Shown in pieces: positions 3,107 to 3,480 of a DNA stretch of 6,054 nucleotides. The notes beneath the pieces were generated by a model. That model was not told where the DNA came from, made no database searches, and saw only the letters and a program-made list of their open reading frames with translations. The stretch is taken from the IMG/VR virus record IMGVR_UViG_2537561509_000007, one strand, 5' to 3'. Positions within the stretch are counted from its first letter, which is position 1. Each line of letters begins with the position of its first letter. Position numbers and translations under genes: made by a program. Source of the stretch: a virus. Its lineage: Duplodnaviria; Heunggongvirae; Uroviricota; Caudoviricetes.

Positions 3107-3295
3107 ATGGAAACGTTATTACCAAACGTTAATACGTCTGAAGGTTGTTTTGATATTGGTGTTCTGCTCAGTAACCGGGAGTTTACTGAAGATGCCATTA
3201 ACATGAGGAAATATGAGCCTTATCTGCTCAATGATAATTCCATACTTTCCCGAATTGCTCTTCTTGAACTTGGTATTTTCGGAGAACGTCAATGA
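3107..3295 (+). CDS. dicB: DicB cell-division inhibitor, 62 aa
   Basis: Internal start of ORF 3002..3295 at ATG 3107, with GAGGA 7 nt upstream. METLLPNVNTSEGCFDIGVLLSNREFTEDAINMRKYEPYLLNDNSILSRIALLELGIFGERQ; the N-terminal half closely matches K-12 DicB as I recall it, while the C-terminal half diverges. Same length and same position downstream of dicF. Confidence 0.85.
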   Translation: METLLPNVNTSEGCFDIGVLLSNREFTEDAINMRKYEPYLLNDNSILSRIALLELGIFGERQ

Positions 3296-3480
3296 CTTCA
3301 GCATTTGCACTGATGATGACGGTTTTTCTTATAACGGGTGAATCACAGAATGTGATTACCGGAATTTATGCCAGTAAAGAATCCTGCCTCCAGGCAAGAG
3401 ACGAGCAAAAAATTTCTGGTGAATGCCTCCCGGTAAAAAAAGTATCGCTGTACCTGAATAACGAAACACCGGCTGGATAA
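3292..3480 (+). CDS. ydfD: YdfD-like small protein with an N-terminal hydrophobic segment, 62 aa
   Basis: ORF 3292..3480. Its ATG overlaps the dicB stop in an ATGA motif (3292..3295), and GGAG sits 7 nt upstream inside the dicB 3' end, so the two are probably translationally coupled. The N-terminus MTSAFALMMTVFLITG is hydrophobic and there are two Cys residues. Position and size match ydfD of Qin. Confidence 0.7.
   Translation: MTSAFALMMTVFLITGESQNVITGIYASKESCLQARDEQKISGECLPVKKVSLYLNNETPAG

Follow-up and report, generated by a model that had tools for sequence, protein, structure and literature searches.

The gene pair at positions 3107 to 3480 of the window (the whole stretch of 6,054 nucleotides analysed here) is best read as dicB and ydfD of a defective lambdoid prophage of Escherichia coli O157:H7, in which they belong to the early-left operon (PL-type, 'dicBF'). 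According to this reading, to which we give a probability of about 0.8, both genes are present as their second common allele, called class B below, ydfD is translated in step with dicB or near it, and DicB is most likely still a MinC-dependent inhibitor of cell division. dicB lies at 3107..3295 on the plus strand, from an ATG at 3107 to a TGA stop codon at 3293..3295, and encodes 62 amino acids (RefSeq WP_000449175.1). The ydfD-like gene follows on the same strand at 3292..3480, with its ATG at 3292..3294, and also encodes 62 amino acids, of the DUF1482 family (RefSeq WP_000199475.1). The pair, its order, its overlap and this exact allele are already known from RefSeq and from at least one published study of O157:H7. 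The finding is thus real but ordinary, small as a discovery, and its value is mainly descriptive.

Both gene identities, proposed in an initial annotation, are borne out by family models. The DicB protein is matched over residues 1-62 of 62 by Pfam PF05358 (125.5 bits for a cutoff of 27, E 6.4e-37) and also by NCBIfam NF049927 (114.2 bits, cutoff 100). The YdfD-like protein is matched over residues 4-61 by Pfam DUF1482/PF07358 (56.3 bits, cutoff 25, E 2.9e-15) and falls in PHROG 1092 (E 6.9e-34); no NCBIfam model matches either this protein or K-12 YdfD. In the pairwise alignments with the K-12 proteins for which that annotation had called, DicB is 63% identical and the YdfD-like protein 45% identical, so the similarity is real. 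A PDB profile search with DicB returned nothing at E <= 1, and a literature search on 'DUF1482' found no paper. The AlphaFold2 models of both proteins are poor (pLDDT 61.5 for DicB, from a 31-sequence alignment, and 52.9 for YdfD, from 21 sequences), and only a secondary-structure outline was taken from them, cautiously.

The genomic position is also the one expected of dicB: the gene lies downstream of dicF, begins at an internal in-frame ATG and has a repressor gene and a Cro-like gene upstream. Its frame is open further upstream on the plus strand, from a GTG at 3002 (in-frame extension 3002..3106, 97-amino-acid ORF 3002..3295 in the ORF list), with the ATG at 3107 inside, which fits the published internal in-phase start of DicB (Cam et al., 1988, in the account given by PMC8835842). 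The dicB start annotated in RefSeq is the position equivalent to 3107, and a Shine-Dalgarno-like GAGGA, read from the sequence, is found at 3095..3099 on the plus strand, 7 nt before this ATG.

The whole window is 100% identical to the corresponding DNA of E. coli O157:H7 strain Z887, where the RefSeq annotation has dicB followed by a DUF1482 family protein and shows the same overlap of 4 bases. It carries an immunity and early-left gene set, composed of a Cro-like gene on the minus strand, a repressor gene with HTH and S24-peptidase domains, a DUF1391 (ydfA-like) gene and two genes without assigned function, followed by dicF, dicB, the ydfD-like gene, a truncated recE, an integrase fragment and a DinI-like gene. 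The order within the operon is ydfA-like, dicF, dicB, ydfD-like, recE'. The dicF small RNA gene (2881..2932, plus strand), located upstream of dicB in the same operon, matches Rfam RF00039 over its full length (1-52), scoring 75 bits where the gathering score is 48. This copy differs from K-12 dicF by a single base, a G at 2918 for an A in K-12, in the terminal hairpin region.

Beyond ydfD, the next gene of the operon is recE, encoding a truncated exonuclease VIII (414-amino-acid ORF at 3573..4817, plus strand; Pfam Exonuc_VIII, E 1.6e-34), annotated in RefSeq as a pseudogene at 3573..4374 with its C-terminus missing. Next come an integrase gene with a truncated N-terminus (4799..5350) and the DinI-like gene (5423..5770), just past which Z887 carries three DUF1076 genes as well as tail-fibre genes of an adjoining prophage. 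The source prophage is lambdoid and defective, recE and the integrase gene both being truncated.

Parts of the early region differ from the Qin prophage of K-12. First, ydfB and ydfC are replaced, between the ydfA-like gene and dicF, by a gene for a 216-amino-acid product (1682..2332, plus strand; PHROG 2151) and a gene for a 73-amino-acid product (2333..2554, minus strand; PHROG 4274), neither of which has a Pfam match. Second, the upstream repressor ORF (599..1237, plus strand; 212 amino acids) matches HTH_3 weakly and clearly contains a Peptidase_S24 domain; only its last 113 amino acids (899..1237) are annotated in Z887, as 'LexA family protein'. The repressor of the window is an S24 peptidase of the LexA/CI type and not DicA; K-12 DicA is annotated without an S24 domain. 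This copy of the dicBF-type operon may therefore be directly SOS-inducible, unlike that of Qin, the induction of which needs the Rem antirepressor (PMC10448788).

The closest characterized relative is the dicB-ydfD pair of the cryptic prophage Qin (Kim) of K-12 (b1575 and b1576; dicBF operon). It shares with the window the order dicF, dicB, ydfD, recE-like, the ATGA overlap and the internal in-frame DicB start, and its proteins, of 62-63 amino acids, belong to the same Pfam families. The DNA is about 97-100% identical from dicF to about codon 15 of dicB, and near-identical again past ydfD. When identity to K-12 is followed in 30-nt sliding windows, it is 0.93-1.0 from dicF to about 3158, falls to 0.27-0.73 over about 3204-3517 and is back to 0.93 at 3518-3562. 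This delimits a divergent segment at 3205..3517 (plus strand), containing dicB codons ~34-62, the whole of ydfD and about 37 nt beyond. The divergence of DicB and YdfD from their K-12 counterparts is a mosaic replacement flanked by near-identical DNA.

The initial annotation had noted that DicB diverges from K-12 from about residue 20 onwards, and the alignment agrees with it: residues 1-19 contain two differences (E2K and D16E), and by our count on the alignment 13 of the 29 residues at 34-62 are identical (45%), this part being neutral in the window and basic in K-12. There is also a smaller variable patch at about 3152-3180 (DicB residues 16-25), which reads DIGVLLSNREF here and EIGVTISNPVF in K-12. 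This patch recombines independently of the C-terminal class, as seen in the natural hybrids P0005 and P0066-P0068.

About 140 DicB relatives from a protein collection sort into three C-terminal classes. Class A, that of K-12, has a tail of the form ...RKQERELLNKICIVSMLARLRLMPKGCAQ; class B, that of the window, ends in ...RKYEPYLLNDNSILSRIALLELGIFGERQ, with a sub-form B2 ending in IIGEQQ; and class C, which is Citrobacter-like, ends in ...LLTDGSILSYIALHRLGVFKEE. Of 5426 complete E. coli genomes, 3971 have the class-A DNA segment and 855 the class-B segment, the latter in up to four copies per genome and in O157, O26, O121 and other strains. Sequenced phages have class B as well (records of PPompW and of Stx2a-converting phages, 94.6%). 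The dicB/DUF1482 pairs of STEC (O157:H7, O26, O121; PPompW and Stx2a-converting phages) have the same class-B alleles, with 94-100% identical DNA, and are annotated 'cell division inhibition protein DicB' and 'DUF1482 family protein'. Essentially nothing distinguishes them from the pair of the window, apart from sub-class B2, in which GTGA stands for ATGA at the junction and DicB has the IIGEQQ end. DicB has three or more C-terminal classes; those of YdfD correspond to them but can recombine. The functional work has all been done on the K-12 class, and class B is carried by about 16% of the complete E. coli genomes, mainly those of Shiga-toxin-producing strains.

The classes of the DicB tail and of YdfD are concordant in 171 loci, a sample biased towards near-identical copies. 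Their linkage is nevertheless not obligatory, because one further locus (L175, 1316..1704) is discordant and because the recombinants P0005 and P0066-68 exist. In L175, a class-A DicB tail is followed by a 67-amino-acid YdfD that resembles class B over its first ~42 residues; its end is class-A/C-like and has an extended tail (..PAGLKTAP). This locus retains the ATGA. The idea that the DicB tail and YdfD form an indivisible, co-evolving cassette was rejected, given the discordance of L175 and the recombinants within dicB. The two segments reassort, as expected of lambdoid mosaics.

Foreign matches were also encountered: E. coli-type DNA of the dicF/dicB region occurs in a contig (L005) binned as a Veillonella parvula MAG, in Aeromonas phage AP1 (98.4% over 2870-3116 of the window) and in an Actinobacillus phage. 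These are likely to reflect contamination or chimeric assembly.

The junction of the two genes is the second element of the main reading. The initial annotation had correctly placed the shared ATGA at 3292..3295, where, as read from the sequence and the ORF list (plus strand), the ydfD start overlaps the dicB stop. The last dicB codons contain a Shine-Dalgarno sequence for ydfD, GGAG at 3281..3284 on the plus strand, 7 nt before the ydfD ATG. In K-12, dicB (L002, 4610..4798) and ydfD (4795..4986) have the same 4-base overlap, and they have been described as two genes of one operon that overlap in part (PMC8835842). This arrangement is therefore ancestral, and the window contains nothing beyond it.

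The junction was compared over 171 loci, drawn from the window, K-12, species genomes and IMG/VR contigs and biased towards near-identical copies; it is ATGA in 146 of them, GTGA in 21, ATAA in three and TAA-G-ATG in one. The scan of contigs with one genome per species contributed seven loci, and L181 was left out, as it seems to mix the two classes and could be an artefact of assembly. Stop and start lie within 1-4 nt of each other in 168 of the 171 loci, while the surrounding DNA is only about 30-70% identical between classes. The 21 GTGA junctions keep a start codon, ATG being changed to GTG. The sole class-C locus (L170) is the one with the non-overlapping TAA-G-ATG. Four further loci, retrieved by means of the recombinant proteins, all have ATGA. 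Moreover, when nine divergent junction sequences are aligned, a GGA is invariant 7-9 nt upstream of the ydfD start, and the DicB residues encoded there differ in context. Since the last eight residues of DicB are dispensable in K-12, this invariance is better explained by the ribosome-binding site of ydfD than by DicB itself. On the strength of the junction counts and of the invariant GGA, the tight juxtaposition of stop and start is conserved and, in our reading, selected.

The three ATAA junctions (L021, L026 and L055) belong to class B; the dicB stop is kept and the ydfD start is lost, which leaves only Met8 and Met9 as starts, inside the hydrophobic segment. Another variation concerns class A, in which the annotated ydfD start is preceded, 9 nt upstream, by an extra in-frame ATG (K-12 L002 4786..4798, ATGTGCACAATGA, giving MCTMNSAF..). 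Class B does not have this additional codon (window 3283..3295).

A mechanism can be proposed on this basis. As suggested by the work on K-12, inactivation of the repressor would lead to a single transcript running through dicF, dicB and ydfD, and YdfD would be a small lysis protein, the killing effect of which is offset by DicB. In K-12, a ydfABC-dicFB-ydfD transcript has been deduced from a Northern band (PMC10448788), and YdfD causes lysis, reportedly binds IspG and is counteracted by DicB (PMC8835842). From the anatomy of the junction, ribosomes finishing dicB at its TGA would already sit at the start codon of ydfD, which has GGAG 7 nt before it; the codons for the DicB tail also contain the ydfD ribosome-binding site. 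The translation of ydfD would then keep pace with that of dicB, or at least not stray far from it, so that the lysis protein would be made alongside the division inhibitor that restrains it.

The rival to this view of the junction is that the overlap is a matter of compact gene packing, ydfD being started independently from its own Shine-Dalgarno sequence and the ATGA having no regulatory meaning. We regard this as possible, though less probable than a link between the two translations. In operons, few geometries of adjacent genes are commoner than a 4-base overlap of the ATGA kind, GGAG is at the optimal 7-nt spacing, and the class-C locus does without an overlap. In addition, no RNA structure hiding the ydfD ribosome-binding site until dicB is translated was found: RNAalifold gives no conserved structure at this site over the nine divergent junctions (-0.07 kcal/mol, 4 pairs), and single-sequence folds of the junction are not better than shuffles (z 0.32 and -0.82). 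A coupling of ydfD to dicB enforced by structure was dropped for lack of a conserved hairpin around the ribosome-binding site. Packing does not account as well for the closeness of stop and start in 168 of 171 loci and for the preservation of a start when ATG becomes GTG, and such proximity favours re-initiation by terminating ribosomes.

The coupled translation put forward in the initial annotation can thus be retained as plausible. The juxtaposition and the upstream GGA, kept in all allele classes, speak for it, and the Shine-Dalgarno sequence proper to ydfD, together with the lack of a conserved occluding structure, makes independent initiation equally possible. Re-initiation coupling to dicB is likely in our reading, and ydfD can probably also be initiated on its own.

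The third element of the main reading is the activity of DicB. In K-12, DicB's N-terminal segment (residues ~1-14) is essential for activity, L5 is critical, and residue 2 must be present, K2A, K2G and K2R being tolerated (Yang et al., PMC4967827). The DicB of the window possesses all of this: its residues 1-15 are those of K-12 except E2, and L5 is present. Over 31 diverse DicBs, 11 of the first 18 positions are invariant, as is the FTEDAI..RK.E core, and the C-terminal helices keep the hydrophobic pattern LL..I.S..A.L. Because both the N-terminus and this C-terminal pattern are conserved, MinC-dependent inhibition is expected to be retained, and class-B DicB most likely still acts in this way. 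The class-B allele has already been handled experimentally as dicB, since the 'dicB' primers published for O157:H7 (PMC6915034) match the window exactly at 3107-3128 and 3273-3295; that study deals with expression and with the deletion phenotype only.

The conserved elements do leave room for a functional difference, because the C-terminal half of DicB (residues 34-62) has a net charge of 0 here and of +5 in K-12, and because class-B YdfD has T2 and no terminal Leu. The initial annotation had suggested that the partner specificity of this DicB (MinC, ZipA) may be altered. One could propose that the C-terminal half of class-B DicB changes its binding or its location (septal targeting through ZipA, ManYZ inhibition), that YdfD differs in potency or target, and that the classes are distinct modules rather than neutral variants. 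This proposal draws on several facts. Only 13 of the 29 residues at 34-62 are those of K-12, and the charge of the whole protein is -5 instead of +3. Deletion of 12-20 C-terminal residues reduces the toxicity of K-12 DicB, and residues 43-54, which contribute to its activity (PMC4967827), differ in the window. Both classes are under purifying selection, so that each form is maintained, and the T2 and missing L63 of class-B YdfD concern positions that matter in K-12 YdfD.

It is opposed by the invariance of the essential DicB N-terminus and of the FTEDAI..RK.E core, by the position of E2, which is one where K-12 tolerates K2A, K2G and K2R, and by the conservation of the hydrophobic pattern of the C-terminal helices. 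Removal of the last eight residues of K-12 DicB does not reduce its toxicity (PMC4967827). Natural recombinants inside dicB, at the junction and inside ydfD suggest that the segments are interchangeable. In lambdoid early regions, furthermore, mosaic replacement of alleles without functional change is the rule. Functional divergence of this kind thus seems unlikely to us, and we find it quite doubtful that the DicB classes (basic in K-12, neutral here) and the YdfD classes (with or without the terminal Leu) actually work differently, for example through an altered MinC targeting or a loss of the block on ManYZ-dependent phage entry, or through a weaker or differently targeted YdfD. If they did, STEC prophages would carry a distinct division/lysis module instead of a neutral variant, and differences in MinC/ZipA targeting, phage exclusion or lysis strength would bear on the effects of these prophages on filamentation and survival.

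The YdfD-like protein itself keeps all the positions that are invariant over the three allele classes (TVFL..GE, C32, C45, EQKI.G.C.P..K and the C-terminal PAG). It is one residue shorter than K-12 YdfD and lacks both terminal residues associated with full killing in K-12, N2 and L63, having T2 and ending at G62. In K-12, the YdfD mutants N1A, deltaC1 and L63A lose lethality on plates (PMC8835842). The need for N2 and L63 is a trait of the K-12 protein, so that their absence bears on the potency of YdfD and not on its family membership. The initial annotation had also made this product a small membrane protein, a proposal that fares less well than the gene identity. A hydrophobic stretch does exist at about residues 4-14 (11-residue Kyte-Doolittle mean 2.60), but over 19 residues the mean reaches at best 1.31, compared with 2.00 for K-12 YdfD. 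The N-region bears no positive charge. The stretch might serve as a short anchor or be signal-like.

Finally, selection was estimated on both reading frames. Within class B, the mean pairwise dN/dS is 0.15 for DicB residues 1-33, about 0.09 for residues 34-62 and about 0.26 for ydfD, these values being rough, as the sequences are short, related and non-independent. Between sub-classes B1 and B2, ydfD has a dN of 0.083 and a dS of 0.245. The C-terminal half of class-B DicB and ydfD are therefore both under purifying selection. That the ydfD-like ORF or the C-terminal half of DicB is decaying, non-functional sequence in a dead prophage is highly improbable: the prophage is indeed defective, with recE and integrase truncated, the ydfD start is lost (ATAA) in three of the 171 loci and ydfD is truncated in a few, but dN/dS values of 0.09-0.26 within class B speak clearly against decay and point to the maintenance of an alternative form, intact ORFs with few or no differences recur in hundreds of genomes as well as in sequenced phages, and the family-invariant residues are all kept.

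Other phages have small division inhibitors at the same position of the PL operon, namely Kil of lambda and KilR of Rac, but their sequences are unrelated to DicB and the likeness is one of analogy only. Kil is described as acting on FtsZ in a ZipA-dependent manner and not via MinC (PMC3961180). In phage Evi (H51), a Kil gene is annotated at the place of dicB, and the flanking DNA matches in parts.

The end of ydfD also deserves mention. A GC-rich stem-loop with a 7-bp stem (GGCUGGA/UCCAGCC) is present at 3471..3490 on the plus strand, and its loop contains the stop codon of ydfD (3478-3480); the same inverted repeat is found by a terminator scan on the minus strand. The surrounding DNA (window 3455-3560) folds at -26.9 kcal/mol with a z of -3.63, compared with a z of -0.99 for its K-12 counterpart. 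A second, short hairpin, TGCCAGCAATGGCA, lies at 3520..3533 on the plus strand, in the right flank common to K-12, where near-identity resumes. The two hairpins may mark the 3' end of the dicFB-ydfD transcript or act as a signal for its processing.
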